Source of the DNA: Octopus vulgaris
Lineage: Eukaryota
Direction: 5' to 3'
Length of the DNA: 64,000 bases
NCBI GenBank assembly: GCA_951406725.2
Contig: OX597824.1
Span: 50,034,001 to 50,098,000, forward strand
The position numbers and the translations under genes were made by a program. Below, in pieces: positions 2,520 to 63,921 of this stretch; position 1 is the first letter of the stretch, and the number at the start of each line of letters is the position of its first letter. The notes below the pieces were generated by a model. It was not told the DNA's origin, made no database searches, and saw only the letters and a program-made list of their open reading frames with translations.

Positions 2520-3503
2520 AGGGATAACGTCTGGGAGTGCATCAACAGTAAAAGAAGAAACATGGCAGAATATATGGTTAACAGGAAAGAAGACCTGTTA
2601 CAGAAGGCTGCTAGTGCAGAAGGAGTTAGCAAAAATGGACTTGAGAGTGCTCATGAATTCCGAACAAGTACAGCAAACGAGAGAGAAGCCCTACTCCGTA
2701 TGGAATTACACGGTCAGTTCCACTGTGAAACCAACAAATTAAAAGACCAGAGAACATCATGGAATACTGACAGCTTAATCATCGCGGCCCAGGACCAGGC
2801 ATTGAATACTAACTCAGTGACAAAGAATATATACCACACAAGTGCATCGGATCTCTGTAGAATGCGTAGGAAGAGAGTCGAAATTGTGACTCACATTGTT
2901 AGTGCTTGTGAAAGTCTTGCGCAGAAAGAGTACAAGCGTAGACACGACAAAGTAGCCCCCAACCTCCACTTGTTGCAATGCCGTAAGTATGGATATGAGG
3001 TTACGGGTGCTTGGTACCAACATACACCGGAAAAGGTAATGGACGAAAAGGGGCAGGCAAAAATCCTATGGGACTTTGATTTCCAGATAGACAAAGTGTT
3101 AGAGCACCGAATGTCAGATATAGTAACCTTTAAGAGGGATAAACAAGAGTGCCTAATAATCGACGTAGCAGTGCCAGGAGATCAACACGTCATCATGAAA
3201 GAAAGAGAAAATGTTGATAAATATGGAGACCTGAGAATTGAGATCGCTAAGATGTGGCAGCTATGAGAGTCGAATATAAAGGTTATCCTTATTGTCATCG
3301 AAGCATTGGGTTCAATACCACCCAATCTAGATGTATTGAAAAAGTCAGCATTATTTGGAACTGCACGCATATTGTGTAAAGTACTATCTGTCTGAGGTCC
3401 TTGTAGTGACTTGACAAACAGTACAAACCTCCAGTGGATACAGTATCTTCAGTCAACAACCTCACGACATTGTATACTGTGCGACGTCTGTAATGATAAT
3501 AAT
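2520..3503 (+). mobile_element. 5'-truncated R4/Dong-clade non-LTR retrotransposon fragment (CCHC + restriction-like endonuclease, 3' UTR)
   Basis: ORF 2562-3266 has AAQDQAL, a degenerate C..(C)..E...HIVSAC knuckle, YKRRHD, LWDF and LIIDVAVP. The C-terminus KSALFGTARILCKVLSV* ends near 3395, followed by a short TAA-like tail. Confidence 0.88.
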
Positions 3504-3504
3504 C

Positions 3505-6340
3505 TTTTCTACTCTAGGCACAGGGTCCAAATTTTTACAATACAGACGAATATTCAGAGTAGGCCCATTGACACGAGCCATTTTCGCAACATTTACCCAC
3601 CTTTCAACAAACTTTCTGGGGCAGGGCAGCAGTACTTCCCTCTCTATCCTCACCTTTCTTTTCAAGTGGAACTTGTAAAAGTAAATGAGGGCTCGGCCGA
3701 AGAGGAAAGTGTCAGTTTTCAGCCCTTTCAACCTCATCCACCCACCAGGTAGAGGGAAACTGCCTTTCCCTCCCGGCCGAAAGAAGGCGGCGGGGCGATC
3801 CTCACAATGGACTCGGTTGATAACCGGATCTGTTCTACACGTGACAGCAGTTGTACGACAAAGCTCCACAAGGCAGTAATGCATGCAGGGCCAAGGTGCC
3901 CAGCACCCTTTCTTGGTCTCCGCTTAACCCAGGACTGTAGCTCAACCAATGAGACGAACTGCGGAAAGTCCCTTTTGACAAACGGCGACCACACTTGCTC
4001 ACCGTTAAGGAAATGCAAGAGATGTTGTAGCCTCAGCGCATGTCTGTGCATCATTAGCCACGACATGCCCAGTCCTCCACTCAGCAGCTGTTGACAGCAG
4101 ATGGACCATCTAACGAGCGGAATTCGTCCCTTCCATTGGAAGTGGAAGTGCAAGCACCCCAGCTTTATCAGGCATGAAATGTAGCAAGAGACAACGGTCA
4201 GGCGGTAGTAGATGAAGGAAGCGATGTACGTATTCGCTACCTTCGCCCGACTTTTCAGAGACAGCCTCCTCTCTACCCATTTCTGGGTGAGATTGGATAC
4301 CCTGCTCGTCACGTCTCCCCCGCCCCCAGTTCTCGCCCACCTGAAGGTCTGGAGCAAACCAGGTCTCTCACTGTCCTAGATTCCTCTAACGCTATTTCCT
4401 TACAAAAACCTATCACCTTTACTTTAATAGCTCTTTTCAGGACTATCCACCAACGGCTGTTGACTATTGTGCTCTCCAACTCTCGATAGACTAACTTGCT
4501 AACCGGTGTCTCTGAAACTTGGCGCACCGGGAAGGACTCGTTCAGCTTCCAATGTCTGGGGCTCTGCTTATGGATTCTATCTATGTCGACCATACAGATC
4601 ACAAATTTATGGTCCGTGTTGCCGACAACTTTGAAACATGATCAACTTATACTACTTCTATCTACAGGCCTACAAAATACTCTATCTAGATACAATCTGG
4701 AAGACCCGATGCGGTTCGTCCATTCGTGAAATCCAGTCAGTATCTGTCAGCCGACTGGAAGCGGCTGAGCAGGTTTGTGAGGCTTTTACTCCCCCTCTCC
4801 TATCAGCTAGCCCCACCCTATCCAGGCGTGCGTCCAAGATGGCGTTCAAGTCACCCAGTAACCTTAAAGAGCGTAACGTCCCAAGGAAAACCTCCAAACG
4901 TCTGAAGAAATCTGGCTGTCCCGCCCCTGTGGGGACGTCGCTCACGTCTAGGACCGCCAACTTACTCTCTTGGTCCAAGAAGATCGTCCGAACTTGTGGG
5001 CTCCGGATCTGGCTCCTCTGAGAAACTGGCTAATGTTAATGGCGCGGACGTTCGGCTTTCCCACCTCATGCGGGAAGTCTCTCTAAATTTCTTTGTATAC
5101 TCTGAGGGGTAACCGTATTAACATTAAATGATCCGGAACCCTAAGGGTGCTGATGTTACAAATTGCACCCGCTCTTTCAATTTGCTTGTTTTTGGCTTTG
5201 AGAGCCAGCAAAATTTTGTTGGCTTTCCATAATTCGGTGTTTCCGTATTGACTGTGAGCTTTGTTTTGGGGGCTATGCCTGGTTGTGGGTGCATTGGTGG
5301 ATTTGGTTGGGGTGGTGGTTGTGGGGTTGGTGGAGCTGCTGTTGTTTTTGTTGTGTCTGTGTTCAATGTGTAGGGGATTTCTGTGCTTTCAGTATGTGAG
5401 CCACATCTATTAAAATTTCGCTAAGGGCCTTCTCAACATGACTGATGGAAGTTATTTTGGATCTCTTAATTTTCCGTGATATGCATTTGAAATATACTAT
5501 CTTTTTTTCTTTTGCCTCTATTATTTCGGGAGGTACGAACTCTGATGCCTTACCCCCGTCAACTTTGATGAGGTCTATTGCTTTTGAAAGTTCTCGAATT
5601 TTGTCCTCGAGAGAGATTGTAAACATTTATTTCTTTGTGTTTGGTACATCAGCAAACCCCTTGTTTTTGTTGTTGATGTCGTCGACGTTGCTGTTGTTGG
5701 TATTTTTACGGATGTTGCTGCTGTTGCGGTTGGTGGTGATGGGGTGGAGTTGTGGCCACTTCGACCGTTTCCACTCCCCACACCGCCTTCAATTGTAGCA
5801 TAATTGTCTTCGCTAAAATCCATTGTGTTCAGAATTGCGTTGCTGTTGCTAAGAGTACTACTACTACAGCAGCCGCTGTCTCCGCTTCCACCGCTGCTGT
5901 GACCACCGCCACCATCGCTATTATTGCCCTCACTACTGTTGCCAATGTTTTCACTTTTGCTACTACTTTGAACCTTTTCGCCCTTCCATTTTTCTTCCTT
6001 CTCTCTTGTAATGTTGTCAATAACGGAGGGAAGAGGAAGGAAATCTTCAGCATGCAAAAAGGCTTTCAGGAAGGGCATTTTTTTCCATAACTCTTCCAAA
6101 ATGCGTTCCACCATTTTGCTTATTTATATTGGCCTAAAACACTTACCAAATTAATCTGGAGCCGAATAAAGCCACGCTAGTGGCTAAACAAGCACAAGAA
6201 CCCAATGCCAGGTTCCTAGTGTTTCTGTTAACAGACTGAAACAATGCTTAATCGAAAAAAAAACAAAAACAGCAGCAAACGGGTGTAAACAAGTTTTGAA
6301 CAAGACTTATTTCAGGCGTTCGAAAATGCGTCTGTCGTGT
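3505..6340 (-). mobile_element. Decayed Tx1/L1-clade LINE with the RT domain deleted (ORF1 remnant, APE endonuclease part, C-terminal part)
   Basis: Peptides LLGDLNAILD, WKLNESF, LSLKSRAKVANTYIAS, GGLGMSWL and KRKVRIERE match ORF2 of the 36-43 kb copy. The 5' end shares GACAGACGCA with position 35703. Confidence 0.88.
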
Positions 6341-6469: not shown

Positions 6470-6654
6470 CTCACACTAGTCATTGGACCTCGGCCATGCT
6501 GGAACACCTCATTGAAGAGTTTTAGTCGAACAAATCGACCCCAGTACATTAGTTTCTTTCATTTCAAAATCTGGTTCTTATTCTATCGGCTTCTTTTGCT
6601 GCCCCGCTAAGTTTCGGGGATGTAAAGAAACTCCCACCAGTTGTCAAGCGGTGT

Positions 6655-6741
<87 letters not shown>

Positions 6742-6863
6742 ACGGGCTTCGGTTTCCGTCTATCAAATCCATTCAGAAGGTATTGGTGGATCTGGTGCTA
6801 CCGTAGAAAACACGAGCCAACGTGTCACGCAGTGAAAGAGAACCTGGAACCACGTGGTTGGGA
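6470..6863 (-). mobile_element. tRNA-derived SINE whose head is cut off at the mariner boundary
   Basis: Homologous to the 20824-21246 SINE, with an internal (CA)n. It stops at ...ccacgtggttggga where the mariner begins. Confidence 0.75.
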
Positions 6864-8209: not shown

Positions 8210-8397
8210 TGTTTATATATGTATATATATGTTATATGTTATATATATATGTATATATGTTTATATATGTATATATATGTTATATGTTATATATATATGT
8301 ATATATGTTATGCTTTATATATATATATGTGTATATATATATGTATATATATATGCATATATATATATATATGTATATATGTATATATATATATACT

Positions 8398-8454
<57 letters not shown>

Positions 8455-8457
8455 ATA

Positions 8458-8602
8458 TCGAGACAAAACCACTATTTTGCAAAACAAACAAGGAAAGAAT
8501 TAATCAATACATAAACAATTTTTAATATAAAGAAATAAACATTTTTTATGTATTGATTAAGTCTTTCCTTGTTTGTTTTGCAAAATAGTGGTTTTGTCTC
8601 GA
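8458..8602. repeat. Foldback with 58-bp inverted arms between (TA)n tracts, probably a PLE terminal remnant
   Basis: 8458-8515 is the reverse complement of 8545-8602 with one mismatch. Confidence 0.9.
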
Positions 8603-8690
8603 ATTATATTATATAATATTTTACTATAAAATTGGATTTAATCCTAAATCTGATTTTTCCCTGTAAATTTGGATTTATTCCCTAATATTT

Positions 8691-8778
<88 letters not shown>

Positions 8779-9025: not shown

Positions 9026-9069
9026 TTATATACATGCATATATTTTTTCTTTTATATGTATTTTTCTTA

Positions 9070-9279
9070 ATTGTTTCAGTCATTTGACTGCGGCCATGAT
9101 AGAGCACAGCCTTTTGTCGAACAAATCGACCCTAGTACATATTTTTTGTGAGCCCACTATCGCTCTCTTTGTCTGAACCACTAAATTACGGGAACGTATA
9201 CACTCCAACATCGGTTGTTAAGCAATGGTGGGTGGGTGGGACAAAAACAGACATGCAAATACATACATACATACATACA

Positions 9280-9311
<32 letters not shown>

Positions 9312-9495
9312 GACATATATATATATATATATACGACGAGCTTCTTTCAGTTTCCTTTTACCAAATGCACTCACAAGGCTTTGGTCGGCCCGAGGTTATA
9401 GTAGAAGACACTTGCCTAAGGTCCCATGCAGTGGGGCTGAACCCAGAATCATGTGGTTGGGAAACCAGCTTCTTACCACACAGCTATACCTGCGC

Positions 9496-9497
<2 letters not shown>
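9070..9497 (-). mobile_element. tRNA-derived SINE (20824-21246 family)
   Basis: Reverse complement of the family head and of the gactgaaacaa tail, with internal (TACA)n. Confidence 0.85.
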
Positions 9498-9548
<51 letters not shown>

Positions 9549-13510: not shown

Positions 13511-13865
13511 TTCCTACCAAGAATTCACAACGATCTCGAATCCACAAGAGTAAACATGAGAGACAGAGACAGGCAGAAACAAGGAAAATGCCCCCTGTAT
13601 TTGAATACTATGCAAATATTCTTAAAAAAAAATTTTTTCTTTTACTTTTTCTAAAATCTAATTGTCTTCCATACTTACAGTTGAAAAAGTCTCAATGACT
13701 GAAACCGGTACTGAAATGTTATTTATAAAATTATATTAGAATTTTCTACCTTGACTCTTTCTTCCATATATATATATAAAATGACCATTCCAAAATATAA
13801 CAATATATATATACGGGAACAACGAAACAAAATGGAAAACATGACAAGTTAACACAGAGAAACGA

Positions 13866-13927
13866 CCCTTTATCAGTTGTCAGCTGTCTATTTACTCCTT
13901 ATTTCGAGCATTCAAAGACAATATGAG
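13866..13927 (-). ncRNA. Candidate non-circularly permuted hammerhead motif (copy with G8A)
   Basis: Minus strand reads ctcat-A-ttgtc...ctc-GAA-ataag...gacaa-CTGATAA-aggg. Confidence 0.5.
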
Positions 13928-14521
13928 ACTTCAAAGACAGTTGCTCCCATAAATTCTAAATTAAAATTTAGAATTTATGGAGTGTAAAAGTTAGGAGCAA
14001 AAAGAAAATGATGGTTGAAGTATACAAGGAAACCGAAGGAAAACAAACATGGAGGGTCGTTAGACCAGAAAGAAAGGAAAATAGTGAACGGTGGGAGAAA
14101 CGTTTTTTGAAAAGAGAAATTAGAGAGAGAAAAACACGTTCGTTCATTTTGTATCTGTCTGTGTCTGTCTCTATTTTACCCCTCGTTCTTTTTTCTAACT
14201 CTGTCTCGTTGCTGACACTTGACCATCGTCCATCTTTCTTTTCCTCACGTGACCATCTTTTTCTGCACGGAAGTTCAAACGAGCGGACGTGTTTTGTTCT
14301 CTCCCTTCTATCTTTTTTCTCTCTCTCTCCTATCTTTTCTCTTCAAAAAATGTTTCTCTTAGCGTTCACTATTTTCCTCTCGTCCTGGTTTAACGACCCT
14401 CCATATTTTTTTTCGTTCGATTTCCTTGTATGTCTCCACCATCATTTTTTGTTCTCAGCTTTGACCCTCCATAAATCCTGAATTTTATTTTAGAATTTAT
14501 GGGAGCAACTGTATTTGAAGT

Positions 14522-14583
14522 CTCATATTGTGGTTGGATGCTTGAAATGAGGAGTAGATAGACAGCCGACAACTGCTGAAGGA
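14522..14583 (+). ncRNA. Candidate non-circularly permuted hammerhead motif (copy with A6C)
   Basis: ctcat-A-ttgtgg...ctt-GAA-atgag...ccgacaa-CTGCTGA-agg. Confidence 0.5.
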
Positions 14584-14721
14584 TCGTTTCTCTGTGTTAA
14601 CTTGTTCTGTTGTCCATTTTTTCTCGTTGTTCTCGTATTTCACTCGCTTTCCCTCCTTTATTTACGTGTTTTATGTTGTTTGCACCGTTGGTGAACACCA
14701 TTCCTATATATGCATGCATAT

Positions 14722-14783
<62 letters not shown>

Positions 14784-14789
<6 letters not shown>

Positions 14790-14930
14790 TAGGACAATCA
14801 GTAAGTTGTCATAATAGTACTCGGAGTTTCAAATGCCGGAGCTAAAGGCTACGATGCATTCTCATCGGGTATTAATGGCATTTGAAACTCCGAGTACTGC
14901 TATGACAACTTACTGGTTGTACTAAACTAT
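14784..14930. repeat. Foldback with 54-bp arms next to (TA)n; the right arm contains a hammerhead 3' half
   Basis: Arms 14784-14837 and 14877-14930. GAA-ACTC-c-GAGT-A at 14884-14896. The upstream core is degenerate (ctacga). Confidence 0.85.
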
Positions 14931-14987
14931 ACATATATAAATATCCTCTATTTACCTAATATCGAGGTCTCATTCTTTTGTTGTCGC

Positions 14988-18660: not shown

Positions 18661-19699
18661 GGTGATAACTGTTTCTTTTATTTGCCTCGAGAGCTCGCAT
18701 TACAAACGGTAAACGTTACATAAAAGTTACAACTCATATAAAACTAGATAAACAAAGTTAAATAAAATTAATGAGGAGAAGGATTAGGACTGTTTGAATT
18801 TAATACAAACATGAAATGAATAAAAGTAATATAAAATGCTCAGTAAATAAAGCAAGAGATAATATTTTACATATAGTAAAGCTGTCGGTCACGCTGGTAG
18901 AAGGAAATGAAAAAAAAAAAAAAAAGAGCGGGGTGTGATTACTAGTAGGAAGTGCTAAATGCGGGAGAACTGTAGTGAGAAGTCTCTATTCTGCTGTAAG
19001 TCGCTGGTATTTTAATCAAAATAAAACTGCAAATTTTTATTATAAATTATATTTAACAATATCACACACACATGAAATTAAATAATGAAACTTTTCTTTG
19101 CAAAACATTGTTCACATGATGGAGTGGGGGTGCAAACACAGACAGACAGACACACACACGCATATATATATATACGACGGGCTTCTTTCAGTTTCCATCT
19201 ACCACATCCACTCACAAGGCTTTGTTTGGCCCAAGGTGCCACGCAGTTTGGATTAATATTACTTGAGATATATAGAAATATATTTCGACAGATGTAGATT
19301 ACACTTAGTTAATTATTTTGTCCGATAAAATTTTTTGTTGTTTTATAATTGCACTTGATATGTAATTGAATAGTTAAAGGTTACGCTCATAATACATAGG
19401 CATTTGAATTAATTTTTTTACAATCTCGCTATCCTTTCACCCGGAATCTCGTCTATCTTTAAACACTGACTCTGACGAGGCTTATATAAAAGGGAATTGT
19501 TTATATATAAAGATATATATATATATCAAAACAAATTGTTGGCTTTTTGATGTTTCAATAATTGTTTATGTTATCTTATATTATGTTATATTATATTCCT
19601 AGTTTATTATGTTATGTTATAATATAAATAAATTATTGGGTTGTCAATTGTATCTCTTTATTTAATTTATATATATATATATACTCTTTACTCTCTACT

Positions 19700-20102
19700 C
19701 TTTTATTTGTTTCAGTCATTTGACTGCGGCCATGCTGGAGCACCGCCTTTTTAGTCGAGCAAATCGACCCCGGGACTTATTCTTTGTAAGCCCAGCCCAG
19801 TACTTATTCTATCGGACTCTTTTTGCCGAACCGCTAAGTGTCGGTGATGTAAACACACCAGCATCGGTTGTCAAACAATGCTAGGGGGACAAACACAGAC
19901 TCACAAACACACACACATACATATATATATATGTATATACGACAGGCTTCTTTCAGTTTCCGTCTACCAAATCCACTCACAAGGCATTGGTCAGCCCGAG
20001 GCTATAGCAGAAGACACTTGCCCAAGATGCCATGCAGTGGGACTGAACCCGGAACCATGTGGTTGGTTAGCAAACTACTTACCACACAGCCACTCCTGCG
20101 CC
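19700..20102 (-). mobile_element. tRNA-derived SINE, young full-length copy
   Basis: Near-identical reverse complement of 20824-21246. Confidence 0.92.
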
Positions 20103-20183
20103 TATATATATATATATAAAGATTTTTCCTCCGTCTGGCTGTTTTTCTCTCTACAAAACGGAAAGTTACATTGTGTAACAGTC

Positions 20184-20823: not shown

Positions 20824-20983
20824 CGTAGTGGCTGTGTGGTAAGTAGCTTGCTAACCAACCACATGGTTCCGGGTACAGTCCCACTGCGTGGCATCTTGGG
20901 CAAGTGTCTTCTGCTATAGCCCCGGGCCGACCAATGCCTTGTGAGTGGATTTGGTAGACGGAAACTGAAAGAAGCCTGTCGTA

Positions 20984-21034
<51 letters not shown>

Positions 21035-21246
21035 GTGTGTGTGTGTTTGTGTGTCCGTGTTTGTCCCCCTAGCATTGCTTGACAACCGATGCTGGTGTGT
21101 TTACGTCACCGTCACTTAGCGGTTCGGCAAAAGAGACCGATAGAATAAGTACTGGGCTTACAAAGAATAAGTCCCGGGGTCGATTTGCTCGACTAAAGGC
21201 GGTGCTCCAGCATGGCCGCAGTCAAATGACTGAAACAAGTAAAAGT
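20824..21246 (+). mobile_element. tRNA-derived SINE, young full-length copy
   Basis: A-box tggctgtgtggtaag and B-box-like gggtacagtccc. Body cttgggcaagtgtcttct, internal (TA)n(TG)n, tail gactgaaacaagtaaaag. Confidence 0.92.
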
Positions 21247-21320
21247 GAGAAAAGAGAAAGAGATGTATGAGTTAATCTTTTTCTGCCTGATTTCAATTTT
21301 TTCCCATTCTATCCACTACA

Positions 21321-36904: not shown

Positions 36905-39068
36905 ATGGCTACTGGTCACCACGTGGCCAATGCGCAAGTCAAGCGTGACGCCGAAACAAAAGAGCAAGATTCTCTGTCACTATACGTTGAATCTGACAGT
37001 TTGAACGCTACTAACACCACCACCATCACCATCAGCATCAACAACAGCAACAACTACAAAACAAAGGTCGTAAGGCCAAGCACCGTCACCGCCATCAATA
37101 ATTTCACCATCAACACCGATACCACCACCATGGCGGCTTCTGCTACTACAACTGCTTCCTCTGCTAACGATACCACTACCAACAACAACAACAAAATCAA
37201 GGTCACCAAACCAATCACCATCACCGCCACCAAAGATCGTGCCGTCAATACGAATGCCACCGCTTCAATATCTGCTGCTACGGCTACCTCCCTTGCCACT
37301 AACACCACCGCCTCCACCAAGAACGACAATAACAACAATAACAACAAGAACAACAATTCTCTTCAGCCCTTGCTCCCTCCACCACAAACAACTGAAGGAG
37401 AGAAAGAAAAAGCCGCGACCACCAAACGAATTGCCGAAATTTGCTCAAACGCAGGGGCAAATTATGCAAACAATTTTCCACCCCTTGCTAGTTGCATAAT
37501 CAGCAACCATACGCCTAACATACCCACAACATTCACCCCTGCCATCAGCACCAACACCACCAGCAGCAACAACAATAACAAAACAACAACAAACTTCGCC
37601 GAGGCGATAAAAGAAAAAAAGACAATAGTATCGTTTACTGCACAGCAGACAAAAGATACAAAAGCCCTAATCACCAAAGAAAATGGCAAAGTGCAATTAC
37701 ACATACCACAACATCTACTGGATAACGTAAAAAAGAAAACAATTATATATAAAATAATAAACAGCTCAACTAAAAGTCCAGAAAAAGCAAACACAGACAA
37801 AATCGAAAATTGCCTACGCCCCATCTAGGGATACAAAGAGTATGTAACTTGGTCGAACAAGTTTGCCCACGTACAAGTAGTTTTTCAAAATGAAGAGTTA
37901 GCAAAACAATTCTCAACGCTAACTCTTCATTCAGATGAGCTAATAATGATACTCAGCTACCTTGGCCCGAGGGTAACAAAAGTCATTATCAATAATGTTC
38001 CTCAAATAGCAGACACACTATGGATAACATCGCCCATATACGTCGGAATGGAGGACATAAATATCCTGCAAATCGCTGTTTCTGAACATAAGAACTGGGT
38101 GGGAAAGAGACTGGAGATTCTCCTCCACATAAACCAAGACGCCATTAACAAAATACCCACCCATATACATCTTGCGGAAGACCACAAATTGTATGTAGTA
38201 GTCGAGGGCAGAAGACCACGCTGCTATATATGCGGCAGTGAAGCACACCTCAATAAGGATTGCAAATCTGCCGCGAAACAACGGCAACAACAACAACAGC
38301 CGCAGGAAAAAACAAAAAAAGCCAGCATTATTACCTACACCACAGTATGGACGGCTGATCAAGCAGCTATACGCGGAAATGCAAGAAAAGCAACAAAGAA
38401 CCAACCAACCCAACCAAACACCACCACCTGCGCCAAGAACAGAATCACCACCACCAATAACAACTAAACCAATTCTAACACCAAGAACAACTACGAAGAA
38501 GACAAGCACCGAGGATGTAGAAGAGACAATTACCACTCCCAATCCCCCAGCAACACACACCCCACACACCACAACAATATCTACAATCGCACAACGATGA
38601 AAGCGCAACAGAATGGCAAATAGCAACTCGGAGTAAAAGAAATAGATAAAAAAGAGACAAACAAACAAATGCAACCAAAGCAGGGAGATATCTGAACCCT
38701 GAAACCAAACCAGCACCAACACCACAAAAACACACACAATGCTATCAGCGATAAACCCCAAAGACTCAAAACTAATGGAGTATATCACAGCCCACACAAA
38801 CATCTGTGAAGATGACTTCAAAACTAACAACCATCCACGCACTACATTACCCAAACACATCAAAATACTATACATCACACAAACACAACACCACACACTC
38901 AAAGCCCTCTTTGCAAATGCGGTTGGGGGTTCCAAAAGTATCTATCGAAAAAACTCTATAAAAACCTCCTCCAAGACACATCAAAGGACGAGGAAACCAA
39001 AACTTTCGACACAAGTAAGTAGCTCTCTGTACCTTCCTTTTTGTGTTTTAAAGCACACACCACAATAG
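36905..39068 (+). pseudogene. Tx1 ORF1 (gag-like, CCHC knuckle), disrupted
   Basis: T/N-rich N-terminus, an in-frame stop at 37826-37828, VVVEGRRPRCYICGSEAHLNKDC, then frameshifts. The 3' end is approximate. Confidence 0.8.
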
Positions 39069-39072
39069 GATC

Positions 39073-42000
39073 ATGGTCAAGATTGGTTGTGTGAATGCGC
39101 ATGGCTTGGGGTTCTCCCTGGAAACAAGGGTACCTCCTAAATGACATCAAGTCACACGATTTGGGAATCATAGCCATAAGTGAGACCAGACTCCACGAGC
39201 CACGGGACCTAAAGTCCATGTTTGGCGGACAGTTTAACATTTATTTTTCTCCGTCTGCCGAGGATGGGCGGTAGTGGCACCGCGGTACATTTTCACAAGA
39301 GCCTCGATCTCGAAGTCAAGACGATATTCGTAGACCCGGAGGGTAGACTGGTCGTCCTGGATGTCGACGGTATCAATGGGTGCGCTTTTCGACTCGTATC
39401 AGTCTACGCACCGCCTTTAACAGGTCGGCCAGATTTCTTTCGACGTCTAAAAGTATTCCTGGGAACGTCTCGTCCTTTACTTTTAGTGGGAGGTTGGAAT
39501 GCTACCTTGGACACGCATCTAGACTATGTGGGGAGAGACAAAAACAGAAGGGGATGCAAATGCCTCAGGGACCTGCTCAGACGATTCAAACTGTCTGACA
39601 GGTACCGTCGACCACCCAAATGCACCAAAGTGGACATGGAGCAACCGCAGTGGGACGTCGAGATCGTATCTAGATAGGATACTGTGTAGGACAGTAGACA
39701 GAGATAATTTAGGATGTCCACAATTCCACACTGTCAGGTAGACGGATCACAAATTCGTGACGTGTACGCTAGACTTAGATAAGGAACATAGACGGGGTCC
39801 CGGTTACTGGAAACTAAACGCATCTTTCCCGTCCAGACATATTTTCAGAGACAGAATCAGCACGTTAGTAAAGAGGGCTTTAACGGGAGCCATCGTCAAC
39901 AAATGGTGGTTCGCCCTCAAGACAGCAGTAAAAGCGGAAGCAATTAGATATAGCAAGGCACTAGCCGTAGATAGAAATAGATATAGCAAGGCACTAGCCG
40001 TAGATAGAGGGTGAGTTAGTTAAGAAGTTAGAAGAGGCAATAAGAAGCGGCATCACGCCGACGTTTTGGCGGCGAGGTTGGCGCTCGACCAACACTTCAA
40101 CGCCAAATACGAAGGGTGTTCTGTCAAGGCTAGGATGCGTGCTCTAAGGATGAAAGATGTTGGAGCCGTGACAGAGGTCCGGGTGCCGGAGGCGCATCAG
40201 GTCAACAAAGCCACCATTCGGTCTCTGGTAGACGAACAAGGGCGCGAATTGCTCGAGCCCAGCAGGTGTGCGAGGCATTTCAGCGGCACTTTGCCCGACT
40301 GTACGGGACGAGTGGCGAGCGTGAACGCAGGGTGGACTTCAGTGCCTACCTGCACAGCCTGCCACGACTCTCGGCAGGAGGGCAAAGTGCTGTGAAGGTG
40401 CCATCACGGCGGCGGATGTGCGGGACGCAATGTCAGAATGCTCGAGAGACAAATCGCCGGGTTTGGATGGTCTTCCTTACGAGTTTTACAATTGTATGCC
40501 AGACTTGTTTGGAGACGTCTTGCCAGCGGTATGCTGCAACTGACAGCAAAACGGAAGCATGCCCTGTTTTGTGAGTCGAGGAGCCGTAACGCTACTGAAG
40601 AAAGATCCAAACAAGGGGGACATTATAAATAACTTTAGGCCCATCACTCTACTCAATGCAGACCTGAAAATTTTGACCAAGGTGTTAGCCAAGAGGTTGG
40701 CACTTGTCATCGAGAAACTGGTCGACAGGGCGCAAACGTGCGCCGTGCCGGGCTGGAGCATCCATGACAACCTCCATCTGATGCTCTACATCATAGACAT
40801 AGTAGTTAAGGAACATGGCATGGGTGGGGCCCTGATCAACTTGGATCAATCGAAAGCTTTCGATAGGGTAGACCATCGATACTTGGAGGCAGTCCTGAGA
40901 GCGGCTGGTTTCGGTCCCGTCTTCCGCGGCTGAATAACTGCTTTGTACAGAGGTATCCGTTCGGTAATTCGCGTAAATGGACATCTATCGAGACCTTTCG
41001 ACATTGCACGTTCGGTCCGTCAGGGATGCCCCCTCTCGTCGCTTCTATACATATTGACTCTCGAGCCACTACTGCGGAAACTGGCGACTCTGAGGGGCAT
41101 CCCGCGAGAACTGGGATGCAGGATGAGCGCGTCTGCATACGCGGACGACGTCACCGTCATAGTGTCAAGCCACGAGCAAATCGAGCTGGTCGGCGAGACA
41201 CTGAAAGACTACGAAGCGGTGACTGGAGCGAAAATCAACCGGGAAAAGTGAGTGGGCTTGCGGCTCGGCACCTGGAGAAGCAAGCCCATGCCGTCCACCA
41301 GCGCCTCCGTCGTGGGACGCTGGACCGACGGCCCGGTCGAGTTGCTCGGGGTCTGGTTCAGTCCGGACCTCCAAATGGAGAACTGGAACGAGATAACGAG
41401 TAGGGTGATCACTCTCGCCCGGCAATGGGCCGAAAGGAAACTGTCCCTAAAAGGTCGGGCGGAGGTGACGAACACGTACATCGCGTCCATCATCTACTAC
41501 CGCCTGACCGTCGTACCTTGCCCCGACCCTACCATCACCAAACTAGAACGCATTCTCTTCCGCTTCTTGTGGAAAGGATGCGTCACGATGGTCAGGCGAA
41601 CCATTTGCTGTCAACACCAGTTAAAAGGAGGGATGGGCATGCCGTGGTTGACGATGCGCAGACACGCGCTGAGACTGCGACATCTCCAGCACTATGTAGA
41701 CGACGGTGATCAGGTGTGGTCGCCGTTTGTGAGGCACGCGTTCCAGCAGCTCGTCTCCATGACCGAACTGCAGTCGTGGATCAAAAAAAGGCCGAGGAAG
41801 GGTGAATGGCACCGCGAGTGTCGCGTTGCTCTCAATCAACTATGCAGTTCCGGATCGACGTTGAGTGACTTCAGCACAACCAAAGCATTCTATAGGGAAT
41901 TAGTGGAGGGGAGGTACGACAACGATCTCGGGGCGAACCTGGGCGTCGACGAGGAATACCTGACTCGCCTGTTTGAGATGACTTTCGGGCCGGGACCTAT

Positions 42001-42520
42001 GGATAACCTCCAGAGATCCCTAGCCTGGCAGTGCTACCGAGAAGCGCTACCCGTTCGGGATAAGCTCTATAGGCATGGCTCGAGAAACACGGGGCCGACC
42101 TGCCCGAGATGCGGTCAGAGCGACGAAACCGTTCTGCACGCAATCGTGCAGTGTCCAACAATCTCAGACCTGTGGGCTTATGTCGAACGACTGCTGTCAC
42201 GTGTGGGACGTGTCGGTTTATCAGCCGAGTCTATCGTTAATATCGTCACGCCTCCTTCCTTCAAACGGGAAGGAAGAGCTATTTTTATCATACTTGTGGC
42301 TATGGCGAAAGAATGTATCTGGTGGACGCGTCTGAAAGGATTAGAGACAAACACTTTCCTCTCTGGTCAATCTCTCATCAATTTCTTCAAGTATCACTTG
42401 AAAAGGAAAGTGAGAGTAGAGAGGCAAGTTTTGTCTAGTGAATGTTTTAAAAAAAGATGGGTGAATGTAGCAAGGATGGCACGTATGAATGACGAAGCCA
42501 CCTTGACTATGATTCTATGA
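39073..42520 (+). pseudogene. Tx1 ORF2 (AP endonuclease, reverse transcriptase, C-terminal Zn finger), disrupted
   Basis: MVKIGCVNAHGL, ISETRL, TDH, YWKLN, FRPITLLNADLKIL, LDQSKAFDRVDH, VRQGCPLS, AYADDV, CPRCGQSDETVLHAIVQC. Several stops and frameshifts, and a 33-bp tandem duplication at about 39945-40008. Confidence 0.95.
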
Positions 42521-44845: not shown

Positions 44846-45339
44846 ACATACACACACACACTCACACACACACACACACATACACACACACACACACTCA
44901 CACACATACACACACACACACTCACACACACACACACATACACACACACACACACACGCGCGCATCAGGCTTTCAAGTAGTCTCTGCTTACCAAATCCGT
45001 CCACAAGGCTTTGGTAGGCCCGGGAGATACGCCTGTGCCTATATATACAGATTTATAATCTGGTCGATATGTATGTATATATCGCTCTTAGAATCTTTCC
45101 TCGTGTAGGCCAGCATTAAGGCCCTCATTGTCTGTTTTTTTGTTTGTTTTATTTCTTGTACTGTATTTTTCGTACTTGTAATTTTATTCTGTATTTTAAT
45201 TTTTTGTATTTTTATTTTGTGTTTTATTTTGTAATTTTATTTGTATCGTTTTTTTGTCACATGTTTAACTTTCCTTGTTTTTACCCCTCTGCGAAGTAAT
45301 TTTATTTATTCCTTCGCAGGAAGGATTGGTTCCACGAGT

Positions 45340-45400
45340 CGTGTTCTGTCCTCACCTTCGAAACACGCTGGAGTTGAACTAGGGACAGCTGATGAAGGGG
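45340..45400 (+). ncRNA. Candidate non-circularly permuted hammerhead ribozyme with an intact core
   Basis: cgtgt-T-ctgtcct / caccttc-GAA-acacg / gggacag-CTGATGA-agggg. Stems I and III are fully pairable. Confidence 0.62.
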
Positions 45401-45613
45401 ATTTTTCCTTGTGTAGTTTGTCTTGTACTCTGTTTTTTTTTTCTTTTAGGTCCGTTTCCACGTTTGTTTTTACGTTTTCGTTTCTCGTTGAGTTCTACGT
45501 CTATTAGTGGTGTCCTGCACTCACGTATATATATTTATATATGCATGTATATATACATGTAGATGTAGATACGTACATATATGTATGTATGTATGCATAT
45601 ATTTTATTTATTA

Positions 45614-47859: not shown

Positions 47860-49440
47860 GCTCTTTAGTTCTAGCAGGGGATTGGAATGGTATTTTGGAC
47901 GCATGATCGGATTGTGTCGGTTTAACTCATACAGGGGACACAAAAGCTTCAAAAACATTCTGAGACGTTTTCAGCTGTCTGACGGGTACCGACTGGATCT
48001 CCTAAATGTGCTGATGTGGACTTGGAGCAACAACGAAGGGCCTTCCAAATCATGCTTAGTGTATTAGTTAGTCTGACTGGCAAAGGTATGTTTAGGTGTC
48101 CACAGTTCAAACTGGTCGGCTACACAGATCACAAATTTGTGATTTTCTCAGTCGTATTGGATAGGACTCATAGGCAGGGACCCGGTTGCTGGAAATATAA
48201 CACGCCTTTCCCGGTGCGAAAAGACTTAGCCAGCTTGTTAAGAGACATCTGACGCGGGCAATAGTCAATAACGGGTGGTGGGGAAACCCTGAAAAAGGCA
48301 ATTAAATATGAGTTAAATATCAATCAGCAAAGAGCAAGTGATAAAGAGAAATAGATTAGTGGAAGATCTAGTTAGTAAACGAGAAGTACCAACGTGTTAG
48401 TGGCTAGGATGGCCCTCAACTATTTCTTCATTGCGAAATACGAAGGCTGCGTTGTCAGGGCTAGAGCTCGTGCACTAAAACAAAATGGAACGAAATCTGT
48501 CTGATGGGCTCGGATGGTGGAGGCGCGATGTGGTAACAAAGCCACAATTCAGTCTTTGATAGATCAGAATGGGCGCGTACTGTATAGTTCCAAGCAAATG
48601 TGTACAGCCTTCCGGCAGTACTTTGCCCGCCTCTTGAGAGAAAGCGACAGGTCACAGAGAATTACGGACTTTAGCACCTACCTCGACGGCCTGTCGTTAC
48701 TCTAGGAAGAAGAGGCTAAACACTTGAAAAGTCAATAACAGCAACTGAAATACAAGAAGTACTGAATGGCTGCTTAAGGGACGAATCGCCCGGTTTGGAT
48801 GGTCTGGTCTGCCCTATGGTTTTCATGGTTATACACCAGAGCTGATTGGTGACCCCTTGGCAAACGTCTATCTTAAGTGCTAGCACAACGGGAGAATTCC
48901 CAGGTCTATGACCCGTGATGTATTAACTTTACAGAGAAGGGACGGCAATACAGGGGATACTATAGATACTTTCCGGTCCATAACTTTGTCCGAATTGAGC
49001 GCAGAGCGACGAAACTGTTTTGCATGCACTCATGCAGTGTCCAAGTATTGCTGGCTTGTGGAGTTATGTCAAACAGCTGTTATCGCATGTAGGACGAATA
49101 TGACTATCGACCGAATCCTTCTTGAGGATCGCTCCACCTCCCACCTTTAACAAAGTAGGGCAAACTGTGTTCCTCTGTCTAGTGGCTATAGAGAAAACTG
49201 TTTTGTGGTGGACAAGGCTGAAAGGATTGAAGAAAGACACCTTCCTCTTCGGCCAAGCTTTTATCAACTTTCAAGGCGGAGAGGGAAGTGCTACATTCCA
49301 GTGAATTTGTGAAAAGATAGGTGGCTGTGGCAAATACGGTTAGAGTGAATGGCCTTAAACGAAGTATTCGCCAGTAGATCGGAGAGCAGGAGAGAGGGTC
49401 CGTACCTTTGGTGGTTATCTGTAGCTTGATTGACCCTAGT
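47860..49440 (+). mobile_element. Old Tx1-clade ORF2 fragment with most of the RT deleted
   Basis: LVLAGDWNGILD, YTDHKFV, GPGCWKYN, SPGLDGL and FRSITL, then a jump to QSDETVLHALMQCP and WWTRLKGL. Confidence 0.85.
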
Positions 49441-49559
49441 TCCGGTTTCTTCAGTATCAAGAGGATTGCTTCATTCATGTTATGACATACTTTGTATACT
49501 ATGTATACTTTTATCGCATTTCCATGCCTTTTCCATTTCTTTATCCCCATCCTTTATGA

Positions 49560-49790
49560 TACTGATTGAAGTGTGCTTCCCGAGGGTCTGTACTGTCTAT
49601 CATGTCATAACAAGCACCTCAGACTGACAGTACCTTACGCAATATGCGTGCGGTTCCATGTAATGCCAATTTTTGAATTACTTGTAGGGTATTTCTGAAG
49701 TTTCCAGATGTTTCTTCAACTTGGGGGGTATTGACAGGGACAACCATTATGTTCGACTCTCGTACCTGCCATATCTTGTAGCTGCCACAT
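49560..49790 (-). mobile_element. R4/Dong 3' end fragment
   Basis: Minus strand IQKLALHGTARILRKVLSV*, plus a 3' UTR similar to 3395-3455. Confidence 0.75.
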
Positions 49791-49952: not shown

Positions 49953-52900
49953 TTTTTTTTTTCTTCTTTCAAATTTGCTTCCATTTCTTGCCGAGTGTCT
50001 TCCCGACTCCTAGGGCAAAGAAACTCATAGTTTACAATGGTAGGCCATTAAACCAAACTCAGTAGTTCGTTCATTTTTTTTTTATTATTATTTTTTTTTT
50101 TAAGTTAAATTAAAATACATGAGCAGCAACAGTTCTCACATCGACAATGCTCTTCTCAATACGTGTGATGTACCAGTTAAGACAATCTTTTGCACCTCTT
50201 GCAGGGATGGTAAGCCAGGGATCATCTCATATAATTTTCGGTTCCCTTCTTGATCATTCCTAGTGCTCCTACGATCGCTGGTATTGTAACCGCCTTGAGA
50301 TGCCACATTTTCTCAATTTCAATGAGTAGGTCTTTATATTTTCTGAACTTGTCAAACTCTTTCGCTGAGATATTATGATCACAGGGGATGCTCATGTCGA
50401 TCAATAAGCAAACTTTATTGTTTTGGTCTTTCACAACAATATCTGGTTTATTGGCCTTGATGGTTCGGTCTGTATGTACTGGAAAGTCCCACAGAATGGT
50501 TACATTTTCTCCTTCAGTTACAGCCTCAGGGTGGTGATTATACCACTTGTCGGCAGTTTTGATATTGTAATGCCGACTTATTAGCCAGTGGAGATATTGG
50601 CCAACTCTGTCATGTCTTAATTTATACTCCACTGGTGCTAAGACTTTACATCCAGAGATTAGGTGGTCCACTGTTTCAATCATGTCGTTGCAGAATCGGC
50701 ATTTTGGGTCTGCTCCATTTTTCATCACATTGGCCTGGTAGTTCCGGGTTAATAGGCTTTGATCTTGAGCAGCCAGGATGGAACCTTTGCTCTCTGCTTT
50801 TAGCCCTGAGCTCCGTAGCCACTGATGGGTTTGCTTCTGGTCAACATCAGCTTGTTTGCTGCGGGTCACATATTTGCCGTGCAGAGGTTTCTCCTCCCAC
50901 CTATCAGCCAATTGCTCGTGCGCTTTTTTCATTGCCATCATTTTCACCTTCTTTGCAACAATAGTTGCCGTACTTCCCTCGGGTTGTTCAGTTTGGGTAT
51001 CCTGCACGAGATCAATAGCAAATTTTTTGCTTTCCTTTATGATAGAATGAAGCTTCTTTCGTCTCTCGTGATTTTCCACGAGCTTTAGCATCCAGTCATT
51101 CGATATTTCGAGATATTTGGCCAGTCCAATTGTGGTTGTTTTGTAAGCTAGTTCAAATTGGATCAGGCCTCGACCTCCTTGGGCTCTGGGAAGGTAAAGG
51201 CGATCTACGCCTGCCTTTGGGTGGTGCATCCTATTACAACTCAGCAGCTTGCGTATTTTTCTATCTATATTCTTTACTTCACTCATATTCCAGTTCAACA
51301 CATTGTAGCTATAAGTAACAACTGGAACTGCTAAGGAATTTATAGCTAACACCTTGTTACGTGCATTTAGTTCAGATTTCAGGACTGCACGAACTCTCCT
51401 ATAACATTCCTTCCTGATTTTCTATTTCATGCTTGCATGCTGAATACCAGAGCCTTCATTTATCCCTAAATATTTGTATGTTTGTTCTTGCTCAAGCTCT
51501 CTTATGACTGTGTCAACATCTAACACGACTGAATTTGTGGTCTTCACTTTCCTTTTCTGGAAAGTGGCCTTGGCACACTTCTCAAGTCCAAACTGCATCC
51601 CGATGTCATCGCTGAATGCTTTCACGGTGCGCAATAGGCCTTCAAGTTCATTATTGTCTTTACCATAAAGTTTTAAGTCATCCATATAAAATAGGTGGCT
51701 TATTTTTTTATTGGCAATTTTATACCCATACCCTGTTCTGTGTAATTCACTTGTAAGGGGTATTAGGGCTATGCAGAATATTAAAGGTGAAAGTGAGTCA
51801 CCTTGAAAAATTCCACAGTTGATGTTTATATTTTCTGAGGCAAGTACTCCATTAGAGTGGTATAATTGGAGATTCGTATTCCACAACGACATATTGTGCT
51901 TCAGGAAGTTTGAAATCACAGGGGAAATTTTGAAGATGTCCAGCGATCTCAAGATCCATGGATGCGGTATACTGTCGAAGGCCTTTTTGTAGTCAATCCA
52001 TGCGGTGCTGAGATTTCTGCGCTTGTTGTGACAGTTCTCAAGGATCATACGATTGATTAGCAGTTGATCTTTGCATCCGTAAGAGCCTCGGCGGCACCCT
52101 TTTTGTTCAATGGGGAAAATATCGTTCTTCTCCATGAATGCATATGTTTTCTCCGCCAGGATAGATGTTAGGATTTTATACGTGGTGGATAGACAGGTTA
52201 TAGGCCGATAGTTTTTTGGAAGGTTGGTTTCGTTATTCTTTGGGAGTAGGTAAGTAATGCCACTTGCTAACCATTCAGGTGTTTTCTTTGGGTCTCTCAT
52301 AATTCCATTGAGCAGCTGAACTAGCTTACCGTGTGCGCATGGGAGCGATGCGAGCCAGAAATTCGGCACCCTATCTTTACCAGGGGATTTCCAATTATGG
52401 GCCTTCGTGAGTGCCTTTCTTAGGTCTGCTATTGTGATGTCTTCCCATGCTTGTTGTTGTAAATTTTGGTAGGATCCTTCAGTTTGTATAATCCAGTCTG
52501 CATTTATGTTGTACGTCTTCTTGTCACTCCAAATCCTTTTCCAAAAGTTTTGAACTTCTTCCATGGGAGGGGGGTCTTTAACGGTTACTTTCTCCTTCCC
52601 TATTTCTCTGTAGAATTTTTTGGCATTGGATGTGAACAGCTTATTTTGCTTGTAAAACTTATTTCTCTTCTCAAATCTTCGTATTCTTTGGGCTTTTGCT
52701 TGGACTTTTTGTTTCAGCGTTTCTTTTATTGATATCAGTTCTTCTCTTGGTGAGGATCCAAATTTTCTCTTCATCTTTCTTCCTGTTCTGGATCTTACAT
52801 CATTTCCACATATTAGTTCATTTAATATTGATATTTCCCCTCTCATAAATTCAATCTCTTTTTCAATTTTACTTCTCCAGGTTTGATTTCTTCCCAGGTT

Positions 52901-53838
52901 TTGTTTTCTTTGTTTTTTCGGGGGCATACAGCTGGTTTCAATTGCCCTAGCAGAAGCGTAAATAATTTCAATTAACTCAGTAAAATCAGGTTTTAATTCT
53001 CGTATTATTTCATTTGTTACATAGTTGCCAATTTGGATTTGTTTTTTATTTTGGTTTGTATTTGAGAGTTTATGAAGTGGTTCTCTATCATTCATACTTG
53101 TATGTTTTACAACTTCAAGCGTATTCAGGATTTTCTGCCTCATTTCTGCCATAGACTCTCTGTGTTCTTCAGCAAATGCGAGATCTTCAATTACTGTTGT
53201 TTTTTCGTTTTCCTGGCTATCTTTAACAGGTACAATAGAATTTCTTGTATCTTCAGGCCTTTGCGTACTTTGGTCAGATGGCAGTCTTTCAATTAAGCCT
53301 CGTGGCGGGCTATACTGTTCATCTGATTCTTCATTTCCTTTGTGTCTTATATTTATGTCATTTTCCGTTGCGTGCTTGATTGCACTTATTTCACTGTCTG
53401 TGAGTCTGTTATTTCTAAGGATATCCCTCCTCACATTTGCTAATTTGTTCTCGTCCAAATAGGGCCTACTGTCTTGATTCCGTGTTCTCCATATACTGTA
53501 AGAGTTTGCGGTGTTTCTCTCTTGAGATGGCCTACCTAATGCATAGTAATAAGCGTATATTACTTCTTTATACTCTTCTCGGGTCCATTTGTTCCGCTTA
53601 CATTTTTCTTTCTGTGGTAGTTGTGGTGGTGAACTTGGAGGGCTCGAGTTGGGGGATTTCCCGTTCAAGTGACCATCCATGTCCGTATTCGGAGAAGAGT
53701 TTGTACCAGTTGATGACTTTTCGATCCCAGGCTGGCTCTTCCCTGGGGGACGCGCTTCCAGATTAACCATAGGACAAGCGATTTGGTATACTATACTGAT
53801 TTAGTTTTCCTTTTAGTTTCCAAAAACATTTTGGAATA
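49953..53838 (-). mobile_element. Near-intact full-length R4/Dong-clade non-LTR retrotransposon in a (TAA)n array
   Basis: Single-ORF RT plus RLE. (TTA)n on both flanks, A-rich 3' end. Confidence 0.95.
50136..53770 (-). pseudogene. R4/Dong polyprotein (RT, CCHC, PD-(D/E)xK restriction-like endonuclease) with one premature stop and one terminal frameshift
   Basis: KSPGKD, YRPITCL, WIDYKKAFDS, GIFQGDSLSP, FYMDDLK, YKYLG, CRFC..ETVDHLISGC, KPDIVV..LIDMS..K. The two listed ORFs are in frame across TAG at 51422-51424. A frameshift near 50225 precedes QKIVLTGTSHVLRRALSM*. Confidence 0.95.
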
Positions 53839-56969: not shown

Positions 56970-57712
56970 TTGGTTTCAAATTTCGGCACAAGGCCAGCAA
57001 TTTCAGGACTATGTCGATTACATCGAGCTAAGTGCTCAGCTAGTACTTATTTTATCGACCCCGAAAAGATGAAAGGCAAAGTCGACCTGGGTAGAATTTG
57101 AATTCAAAACGTAAAGACGGACGAAATGCCAATAAGAATTTTGCAAGGCGTGCTAACGACTCTGCCAGCTTGCAGCTTTATGTTAGGTATACATATTATT
57201 TTCAAATATGTATGTAGTTTGTGTTATTTCCTGGTCGGGCCTCATTGTCAGGATCATATATTAACGAAGACATTGCAACTGTTTCAATCTTAATTTTATA
57301 CTGCTGGCAGAATCGTTAGCATACCGGGCAAAATGCTTTTTCGGTATTTCGCCCGTTTTCACGTTCTGAGTTCAAATTCCGCCGAGATCGACTTCCCCTT
57401 TCATCCTTTCGGGGTCGATAAATTAAGCACCAGTCGAGTACTGGGGTCGATGTAATCGACTAGTCTCCTCCCTCCAAATTTCAAGGATTTTTATTAAGGC
57501 GGCGAACTGGCAGAATCGTTAACGCGCCAAGTAAAATGTTTAGCAGTACCTTTTTTGTAAAGACTTCCTGAATTTAAATATTGCCGGGGTCGACTTTATC
57601 TTTCATCCTTTCGGGGTCGATAAAATAAATCCATCAAGCACTGGGGTCAATGTAATCGACTTAGCCACTCCCAACCCTAGTTTCAGGTCTCGTGCCTAAA
57701 GTAGAAAGAATA
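56970..57712. mobile_element. SINE cluster: one minus copy (about 56970-57175) and two plus copies (about 57300-57485 and 57497-57712)
   Basis: The family core cctttcatcctttcggggtcgataaa appears in each. Confidence 0.82.
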
Positions 57713-57760: not shown

Positions 57761-58006
57761 CTTGATAATAATTTCACATTTGATTCCCAATTCTAATGAT
57801 TTTTATATTTTGTGTCCAATTATTTCTTTGTATAATAGTGCTCACTTGCTTTGTAAATATTGCTTTCATTATCTTATCACTGTCATAATCCCTATTTTTT
57901 AAACAAACATTACGGTAGTCCAACAACAAGGGAAGCAGTTTGTCAAATTTTACCTTCCCCTCAAAGCAAAATTTCAATTCAGCAGCCCTTCTGTAAGCTT
58001 TGCAAT

Positions 58007-62649: not shown

Positions 62650-63179
62650 ACTAGCTCATGGCCTAATGCACTGCGGTTATCCTGGAACATCGCCTTAAAG
62701 GGTTATAATCGAGGAAATCGACCCCAGGACTTATTCTTTGCAAGCCAAATTCTTATTCTATCGGTGTCTTTGGCCGAACTGCAAAGTTACGGGGACATAA
62801 ACATACTAGCATCAGTTGTCAAGCCATGGCAGACACATACATACACGCACACACGGCGGGCTTATTTCAATTTCCGACTACCCAATCCATTCTCAGGGCT
62901 TTGGTCGGCCCAAAGTGTCACGTAGTGGGACTGAGCCTGGGACCAGTTGGTTGGGGAGCAAACTTCTCACCACAAAGCAAATTTTGCGCCTCAATATATA
63001 TATATATTCTTTTGTTTCAGTCTTTAGACTGCAGCCATACTGGGGCACCGACTTGAAGAAATTTAATCAAACGAATCAACCCCCAGCACTTATTTTCTAA
63101 ATCCGGGTACTTATTCTATCGGTTTCTTTTGCTGGTCCACTAGGCTACGGGGACCATAACCGGTTGTTTACAAACACAG

Positions 63180-63222
<43 letters not shown>

Positions 63223-63375
63223 CATGCATACACATGCACACACACATATTTATATACACGACGGCTTTCTTTTTTAATTTCCGTCTGTCAAATCCATTCA
63301 CAAGGCTTTGGTTGGCCCGTGGATAGAGAAAAGACTTGTCCAAAGTTACACGCCGTGGAACTGAACTCGGAACCA
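62650..63375 (-). mobile_element. Two tandem degenerate SINEs of the 20824-21246 family
   Basis: aaatcgaccccaggacttattc / aatcaacccccagcac tails and cacaaggctttggt bodies. Confidence 0.75.
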
Positions 63376-63921
63376 CAAACACACACACAGGCACAAAGAC
63401 GCCTTTACACGTATGTATAAATGAGCAGAGAGGAACAATTGAGAGTGACAATTGATATGTATTTGAGCAACATAAACAAATACAGGTATACCAGATACCA
63501 TACAACATAGATTCCTGTTTATTAAAATTATCTCCGCCTCCATAGGACGTATTTCAATTATTAATTGTAAACTGAAAATCAGTTCTATATGAAATGGAGA
63601 GATACCCTATAGAATCAAGAATTAACCAAAGTTGACAAGCTATTAAGGAAAGGACACATACATATATTTACACATAGAGATGAACATACAGACATATTCA
63701 TATATTGCGTACAGATACACATAAATACATATGCATAATCACATACACAGACACACACGCATATATACTCATTTATACATTCCTACATACTAATATGCAT
63801 TTGAATACATGCAGTCGTACGTATATACATATGCACTCACATGCACACACATACATATATATATATACAAACAAACACGTTTATATATATGTATATATAT
63901 ATATATGTATGTATGTATATG

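Follow-up and report, generated by a model that had tools for sequence, protein, structure and literature searches.

A putative hammerhead ribozyme with its core split between A9 and G10.1 in a foldback repeat and in Naiad elements

A foldback at 13.8–14.6 kb of the window (the whole 64-kb stretch of DNA that was analysed, an animal sequence rich in microsatellites with GC = 37%) is best explained as two decayed, 5′-truncated tail copies of a repeat, likely of the Naiad type, which carry a hammerhead-like motif with its core split between A9 and G10.1 and whose intact copies would likely cut themselves; we assign this reading, which is drawn from sequence comparison, a probability of about 0.7. 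The modelled fold of five helices is very probably correct, and intact members of the family are predicted with good confidence to cleave their own RNA. The two foldback copies, each with one change in the core, are probably dead, and it is very unlikely that either is still active. The copy at 45.4 kb is the best natural test case. The motif is predicted to work like a hammerhead and lies outside types I–III and outside type SGC as defined.

Repeat setting and layout of the motif

The foldback was confirmed as two arms (13811–14130 and 14322–14638) that share 84% identity across 321 nt and belong to copies of one repeat family (family 2). Another family (family 1) is represented by the 45.4 kb copy, which also terminates at a TA run, starting at 45526; the two families are alignable over their final ~300 nt, with a similarity that is not significant (nhmmer E 0.11). 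The features are as follows.

13811..14130, minus strand: left-arm inverted copy of family 2, 5′-truncated, 3′ end in a short TA run; 84% identical to 14322–14638
13864..13986, minus strand: left-arm motif of the same layout, altered in the core, in stem III and in P0
14131..14704, plus strand: right-arm copy of family 2, 5′-truncated, 5′ boundary approximate, 3′ end at a TA-rich run
14463..14468, plus strand: 5′ strand of P0, partner 14580–14585 (6/6 pairs with the majority letter at 14583)
14469..14502, plus strand: hairpin H, fourth arm of the predicted junction; 8 pairs, 100% paired, 5 two-sided changes
14503..14507, plus strand: upstream strand of stem II, first base G10.1; 100% paired, 3 two-sided changes
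14522..14533, plus strand: block S, with stem III strand 14522–14526, predicted cleavage base A14527 and stem I strand 14528–14533
14539..14551, plus strand: block G, with stem II strand 14539–14543, GAAA 14544–14547 and stem III strand 14547–14551
14567..14585, plus strand: stem I strand 14567–14572, core 14573–14579 (one change) and P0 3′ strand 14580–14585
14705..14786, no strand: TA-rich microsatellite adjoining the 3′ end of the right-arm copy
45284..45400, plus strand: family 1 motif, with all core letters and all helices intact; the sole strict-descriptor match in the window
Family 1 helices, plus strand, 45.4 kb copy: P0 45284–88/45396–400; H 45289–319; stem II 45320–24/45355–59; stem III 45340–44/45363–67; stem I 45346–51/45383–88
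Family 1 core, plus strand, 45.4 kb copy: 45389–95, with predicted cleavage base U45345

From 5′ to 3′, the motif consists of a P0 strand, hairpin H, a stem II strand beginning with G10.1, a stem III strand, the cleavage base, a stem I strand, a second stem II strand followed by GAAA and a stem III strand, a stem I strand followed by CUGAnGA, and the second P0 strand. The initial annotation had read the same strand order, [III, cleavage base, I]-[GAAA, III]-[I, core], in both foldback arms, and the sequence bears this out. It was also right that stems III and I have changed relative to 45340–45400, each single copy having further mismatches, and that the linker is kept, at 15 nt in both families. 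The hairpin-GUGU that it had described as conserved downstream is clear in the 45.4 kb copy only, and it competes with P0. Stem II is complementary in different letters in the two families (GAAGG/CCUUC in family 1, GAGCA/UGCUC in family 2), with the upstream strand ~35 nt before its GAAA-side partner, and the same is true of the letters of P0 (CCCCU/AGGGG and GACCCU/AGGGUC). One mismatch adjoins the 8-pair base of hairpin H. In the window copies the upstream strand of stem II lies directly 3′ of H, and H directly 3′ of the P0 strand, with zero spacer at every joint. Because the G10.1 strand follows H, H follows the P0 strand and P0 pairs after CUGAUGA, A9 and G10.1 are not linked in the chain, and a four-way junction is predicted between them.

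The cores of the foldback copies read CUGAUAA in the left arm (13876–13870, minus strand) and CUGCUGA in the right arm (14573–14579). Contigs from four public runs were aligned along about 14131–14720, and the numbers recovered (4998, 6310, 5678 and 1219), which say nothing on expression and for which the RNA nature of one run (X20) is a guess, indicate a high copy number for family 2, in organisms A, B and D at the least. The majority letters, taken among the substitutions listed (16 further rows exist), mend the motif. The C at 14576 is replaced by A in 98.7–99.7% of depth in 4/4 runs, which restores the core, as expected from the earlier proposal that the ancestral core was intact. Position 14543 (T in the right arm) is C, corresponding to C11.1, in 87–92% of family depth; position 14532 (G in the right arm) is C in 87–95%, which mends stem I; and position 14583 is G in 94–99%, with which P0 has 6/6 pairs.

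Judged against the definition of a hammerhead, the core elements CUGAnGA, GAAA and UH with A15.1-U16.1 are intact at 45340–45400 and have one change per foldback arm, and stems I, II and III together with a purine-pyrimidine pair at 10.1-11.1 are present when the upstream stem II strand is used. The circular order C-G-S of types I–III is not found, since the order of the blocks differs. No Rfam hammerhead occurs among the matches listed for the window (150 of 162), nor was one obtained at E 10 for 45200–45480 or for five metagenomic loci; the Rfam matches in these scans were dismissed as microsatellite-driven miRNA and weak chance matches.

Permuted hammerheads have been classified into six possible block orders on the premise that CUGAnGA and the stem strands flanking it form an indivisible unit (Eckert 2023; PMC10085705). 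According to that study, type SGC cleaves and its examples are restricted to metatranscriptomes, type CSG is represented by two metagenomic sequences, and no non-circular permutation is reported from the genome of a known organism except one weak GCS candidate. The present motif resembles types SGC and CSG (HRIMA-1) in its S-G-C handedness, its short linker between stems I and II, its complete set of core letters and its pseudoknotted connectivity, and the window copies have the block order S, G, C. Unlike in the types of Eckert 2023, CUGAnGA and the stem II strand are separated, P0 and H being inserted, and no stem II strand directly follows CUGAnGA. By eye, the window copies show no consistent equivalent of the extra helix that in type SGC connects stem I to stem II on their free sides. 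The pseudo-LTRs of Penelope, Neptune and Hydra elements contain type I hammerheads with the order C-G-S and a short palindromic stem III, which are thought to be dimeric (PMC8557442 File S2; PMC6765202). The motif is like these in its core and in its likely location close to the 3′ terminus of a Penelope-like element, and unlike them in that their order is canonical and their stem III short and palindromic.

Relatives in Naiad consensus sequences and metagenomes

Naiads are described as lacking canonical hammerheads, with 10 rows flagged “HHR_core” and 8 flagged “HHR_half_core” (Craig 2021; PMC8557442). A sense-strand text search of the Naiad file in the supplement of that study was performed with four spellings of CUGAnGA, missing motifs split by line ends, and matches were judged by eye. 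The split layout was recognized in the 3′ UTRs of 10 of the 54 Naiad consensus sequences (Beroe, one Clytia-block record, three from Acropora, Naiad-2_Movir, a single record in each of parts 12 and 19, and a pair from Octopus), which form 7 sequence families with different stem letters and joints of 0–2 nt. Stem II is written as GGCCCA/UGGGCC, GGCC/GGCC, GGCUCC/GGAGCC, GGGGA/UCCCC, GGCCCC/GGGGCC, GACGCC/GGCGUC and GACACC/GGUGUC. The core, G10.1-C11.1 and A15.1-U16.1 are invariant, N17 varies among A, C and U but is never G, and N7 is either U or G, all in keeping with the rules for hammerheads. Individual records deviate: stem I of the Beroe Naiad has only 2 pairs adjoining the cut, the Octopus Naiad consensus has one mismatch in P0 and one in H, the record before Naiad_Adux is without stem II pairing, and one additional cephalopod record fits the layout in part. 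In this line-end-blind sense-strand search, about 37 of the 54 Naiads showed either other layouts or no clear permuted hammerhead.

Six Naiad records (inside the nematode block and beside it) were judged by eye to be intact type-CSG hammerheads; these 3′ UTRs, in supplement parts 13–16, are those of Naiad-1, -2 and -3_Nbra, named from the header that follows, and of three neighbouring records, and in most of them an extra helix is evident. Other arrangements were also seen. A spider Naiad (the record before Naiad_Sdum) has a site block, a local stem II hairpin, GAA and a distant CUGAAGA. The 3′ UTR of Naiad-1_Movir has, by eye, a twister-like motif at the hammerhead position. Where the ribozyme would lie, the 3′ UTRs of Naiad-1_Chem, Naiad-2_Chem and Naiad-1_Skow have another conserved motif in common (CGGGUG ... 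GCUyACUC ... CACCUGA), which may be a structured or self-cleaving RNA of a kind not yet described.

A pattern built from the Naiad motifs was used to scan metagenome contigs (8 of 64 parts), which yielded 120 loci; given the origin of the pattern, Naiads are expected among the matches. Twenty-four of these loci belong to one Acropora-type family in two samples, and a possible extra member (L090) failed the family filter and is counted among the 96 others. Nineteen of the 24 were aligned; in the five set aside (L013, L054, L067, L116 and L120) the upstream flank was short or had been replaced. In the 19 copies, 94.5% of the cells are paired under the split model, and two subfamilies differ by two-sided changes, one in P0 and one in stem I, a number of two-sided pairs (2) no better than that of shuffles (380/500). 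A strict descriptor of the split motif passes 7 of the 24 family loci, 0 of the 96 other metagenome loci and 0 of the 120 viral loci from an IMG/VR pattern scan, none of which fits either the split or the SGC model. Intact copies of the motif are present at L041 and L077. The metagenome scan also picked up a type II hammerhead of canonical form, in one contig (L021:1405–1471). A covariance model (R1) built from the three window copies found no further full copy in the window, its weak match at 57857–57971 (E 0.016) being without the motif, and gave no match to the metagenomic motif family.

At one locus of the metagenomic family (L024), an RT-thumb fragment has its stop codon ~330 nt upstream of the motif, and the shared sequence runs to ~65 nt past the core. 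A relative of this RT fragment, the 858-aa protein P0017, has an N-terminal nuclease-like part, CxC, DKA, a weak RVT_1 match and nothing after the thumb, features that match the Naiad diagnostics as defined in Craig 2021 (PMC8557442). The host suggested in the initial annotation, a Penelope-like element, is supported by the relatives of the same layout and by this metagenomic RT. In the window itself, no significant Naiad coding remnant was found by tblastn with five Naiad-type proteins (best E 0.082), and the window family is assigned by its architecture (the layout, the inverted truncated copy and the TA-run ends). Naiads are characterized by 5′-truncated copies, an adjacent inverted copy and (TA)n targets (PMC8557442), and the window family is like them in all three traits, which are not unique to Naiads, and in having the motif layout found in 10/54 Naiad consensuses. 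Unlike Naiads, the window families have no sequence match to the motif regions compared and no ORF alongside; absence of the Naiad ORF (GIY-YIG, CxC, DKA, RT) is as expected for 5′-truncated copies. A word of 11 nt, upstream of H, is shared by a loose-end consensus of the contigs and the Octopus Naiad; it is suggestive, although too short to count. On these comparisons, the window family is probably derived from a Naiad.

The split fold weighed against other explanations

On the three window copies, the split model paired 86.7% of 90 cells and contained 11 pairs with two-sided change, a result matched by 0/500 shuffles and favoured by the fact that the model was drawn from the same three rows (two families) that score it; slid controls paired 40–47%. 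The model of the initial annotation gave 75% of 48 cells and 3 two-sided pairs on the same copies, with 96/500 shuffles doing as well. Chance complementarity in a decayed repeat gains something from the less demanding patterns: stems I and III alone occurred 119 times in 1522 shuffled windows, and a relaxed descriptor, which finds exactly the three copies in the window, gave 475 matches in 1358 shuffled windows (0.35 per window), 8 of which had at least three, and is therefore weak evidence by itself. With the strict descriptor there was one match in the window, the 45.4 kb copy; 1522 shuffled windows gave 4, and 262,180 shuffles that kept the core fixed gave 80. The case against chance rests on recurrence with covariation in independent families, together with majority letters that mend the core and stems, and chance is considered extremely improbable. 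A plain type-SGC hammerhead would build stem II from the strand preceding GAAA and the AGGG that follows the core, with one bulged A. Such a form agrees with the S-G-C order and, in the 45.4 kb copy, with the 3-nt linker; two of the window copies can make 3–4 of its stem II pairs, roughly half being G-U. This stem II, as drawn in the initial annotation, never exceeds 4 contiguous pairs, again with G-U making up about half, and in the window 73% of its cells are paired, versus 100% with three two-sided changes for the upstream partner; in the 19 metagenomic copies it is 31.6% paired and lacks the 10.1-11.1 pair in 19/19, and it cannot form in most of the published Naiad examples. We hold the plain type-SGC form to be very unlikely. 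What stands of the earlier claim is a selected hammerhead-like RNA with covarying stems, permuted non-circularly; the simple “reversed” form does not, the core being split between A9 and G10.1. The fold is not plain type SGC because of helices H and P0 and the true partner of stem II, which the first reading had overlooked.

The five helices might also be real and serve as a non-cleaving, or protein-dependent, 3′-end recognition element that retains hammerhead letters by descent, a role that we regard as unlikely. Single-sequence MFE folds, in which pseudoknots cannot be drawn, give structures other than the split model, the 45.4 kb copy folding into a rod that buries both stem II strands, although hairpin H is present in the MFE fold of all three window copies. 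Such competing folds favour a recognition element, as do the very slow cleavage of Penelope-like element hammerheads described in vitro and the spread of many Naiads without the motif (PMC8557442). Against it, the stems have been rewritten in nine families while the catalytic letters and the rule that N17 is not G were kept, and Naiad-1_Movir appears by eye to have a twister-like motif in the same place. It is improbable to a greater degree that the helices form between two copies, in tandem pseudo-LTRs or in a dimer, as in the minimal hammerheads of Penelope elements. Penelope-like elements are indeed found as partial tandems (PMC8557442), their minimal hammerheads are believed to cleave in dimeric form, and nested pseudoknots may fold poorly in cis; however, stem III has at least 5 pairs and is not palindromic, all partners lie within ~120 nt, and the type-SGC relatives cleave during transcription (PMC10085705).

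Proposed action, origin and genomic surroundings

In the split fold, P0 would stack on H, stem II would stack against the core at its G12-A9 face, and the resulting four-way junction would hold A9 beside G10.1 without a covalent link. Such a meeting of unlinked bases is plausible because an extra base is tolerated at this link. A viroid hammerhead has an extra A after A9. Hammerhead cores are reported to tolerate insertions of one or two bases (Perreault 2011; PMC3088659), and known type-SGC ribozymes tolerate an extra base between A9 and G10.1, their descriptor permitting one extra U after the core (Eckert 2023; PMC10085705). Hammerhead variants with additional helices are credited to Weinberg 2015 among others (cited in PMC13725137), and these may provide a partial precedent for an extra helix. 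Neither a hammerhead split between A9 and G10.1 nor a permuted hammerhead in Naiads was found in the literature open without subscription, and a split hammerhead is not described in the available sections of a 2026 retrozyme preprint and of Forgia 2023.

Intact copies would cut after N17 (U45345, or the equivalent of A14527, the site already predicted in the initial annotation), and the two products would remain joined by P0, II and III. Penelope-like element hammerheads have been proposed to release unit-length RNA from tandem or read-through transcripts (PMC8557442), and by analogy the cut may free unit-length element RNA in the same manner. The split form could have arisen from the Naiad type-CSG ribozyme by a single circular permutation, in which the stem I strand and core at the front were moved to the back via a tandem or circular intermediate and the new ends were clamped by P0. 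We cautiously favour the broader proposal that a seventh hammerhead connectivity serves the Naiads found in comb jellies, cnidarians, arthropods and cephalopods to cut their RNA. Its catalytic core would be open between A9 and G10.1, rebuilt as a four-way junction, and derived by circular permutation from a CSG ancestor that other Naiads still carry; these would be the first non-circularly permuted ribozymes in animal genomes, in thousands of copies.

If this is true, the motif is a natural and widespread exception to the stated rule that CUGAnGA and stem II adjoin, and non-circular RNA permutations, instead of being confined to rare metatranscriptome contigs, become a feature of animal genomes. 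The apparent absence of hammerheads in Naiads compared with other Penelope-like clades, an open point in Craig 2021, would also be explained, since searches that assumed the canonical order would have overlooked them. Such a ribozyme, with ends that exit from a new helix, would offer a different scaffold for RNA switches.

The window also contains other repeats. A palindromic, MITE-like element of 175 nt (14770–14944) lies next to the TA run, and more foldbacks are located at 8280–8777 and 57007–57465. A near-intact non-LTR retrotransposon on the minus strand (50222–53800) has two frames, one of 792 aa with RVT_1 (E 9e-30) and after it one of 399 aa, with related fragments at 2520–3266, and a broken LINE on the plus strand (37829–42520) has a zinc-knuckle-like first ORF, RT pieces and zf-RVT, with related remnants at 3335–4916 and 47933–49678. 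A SINE-like family of ~430 bp, which resembles octopus repeats, is found at 6478–6861, 9038–9498, 19675–20104, 20827–21262 and 62670–63376, and a second short repeat family of ~120–180 bp has more than 12 copies between 11.0 and 57.7 kb.
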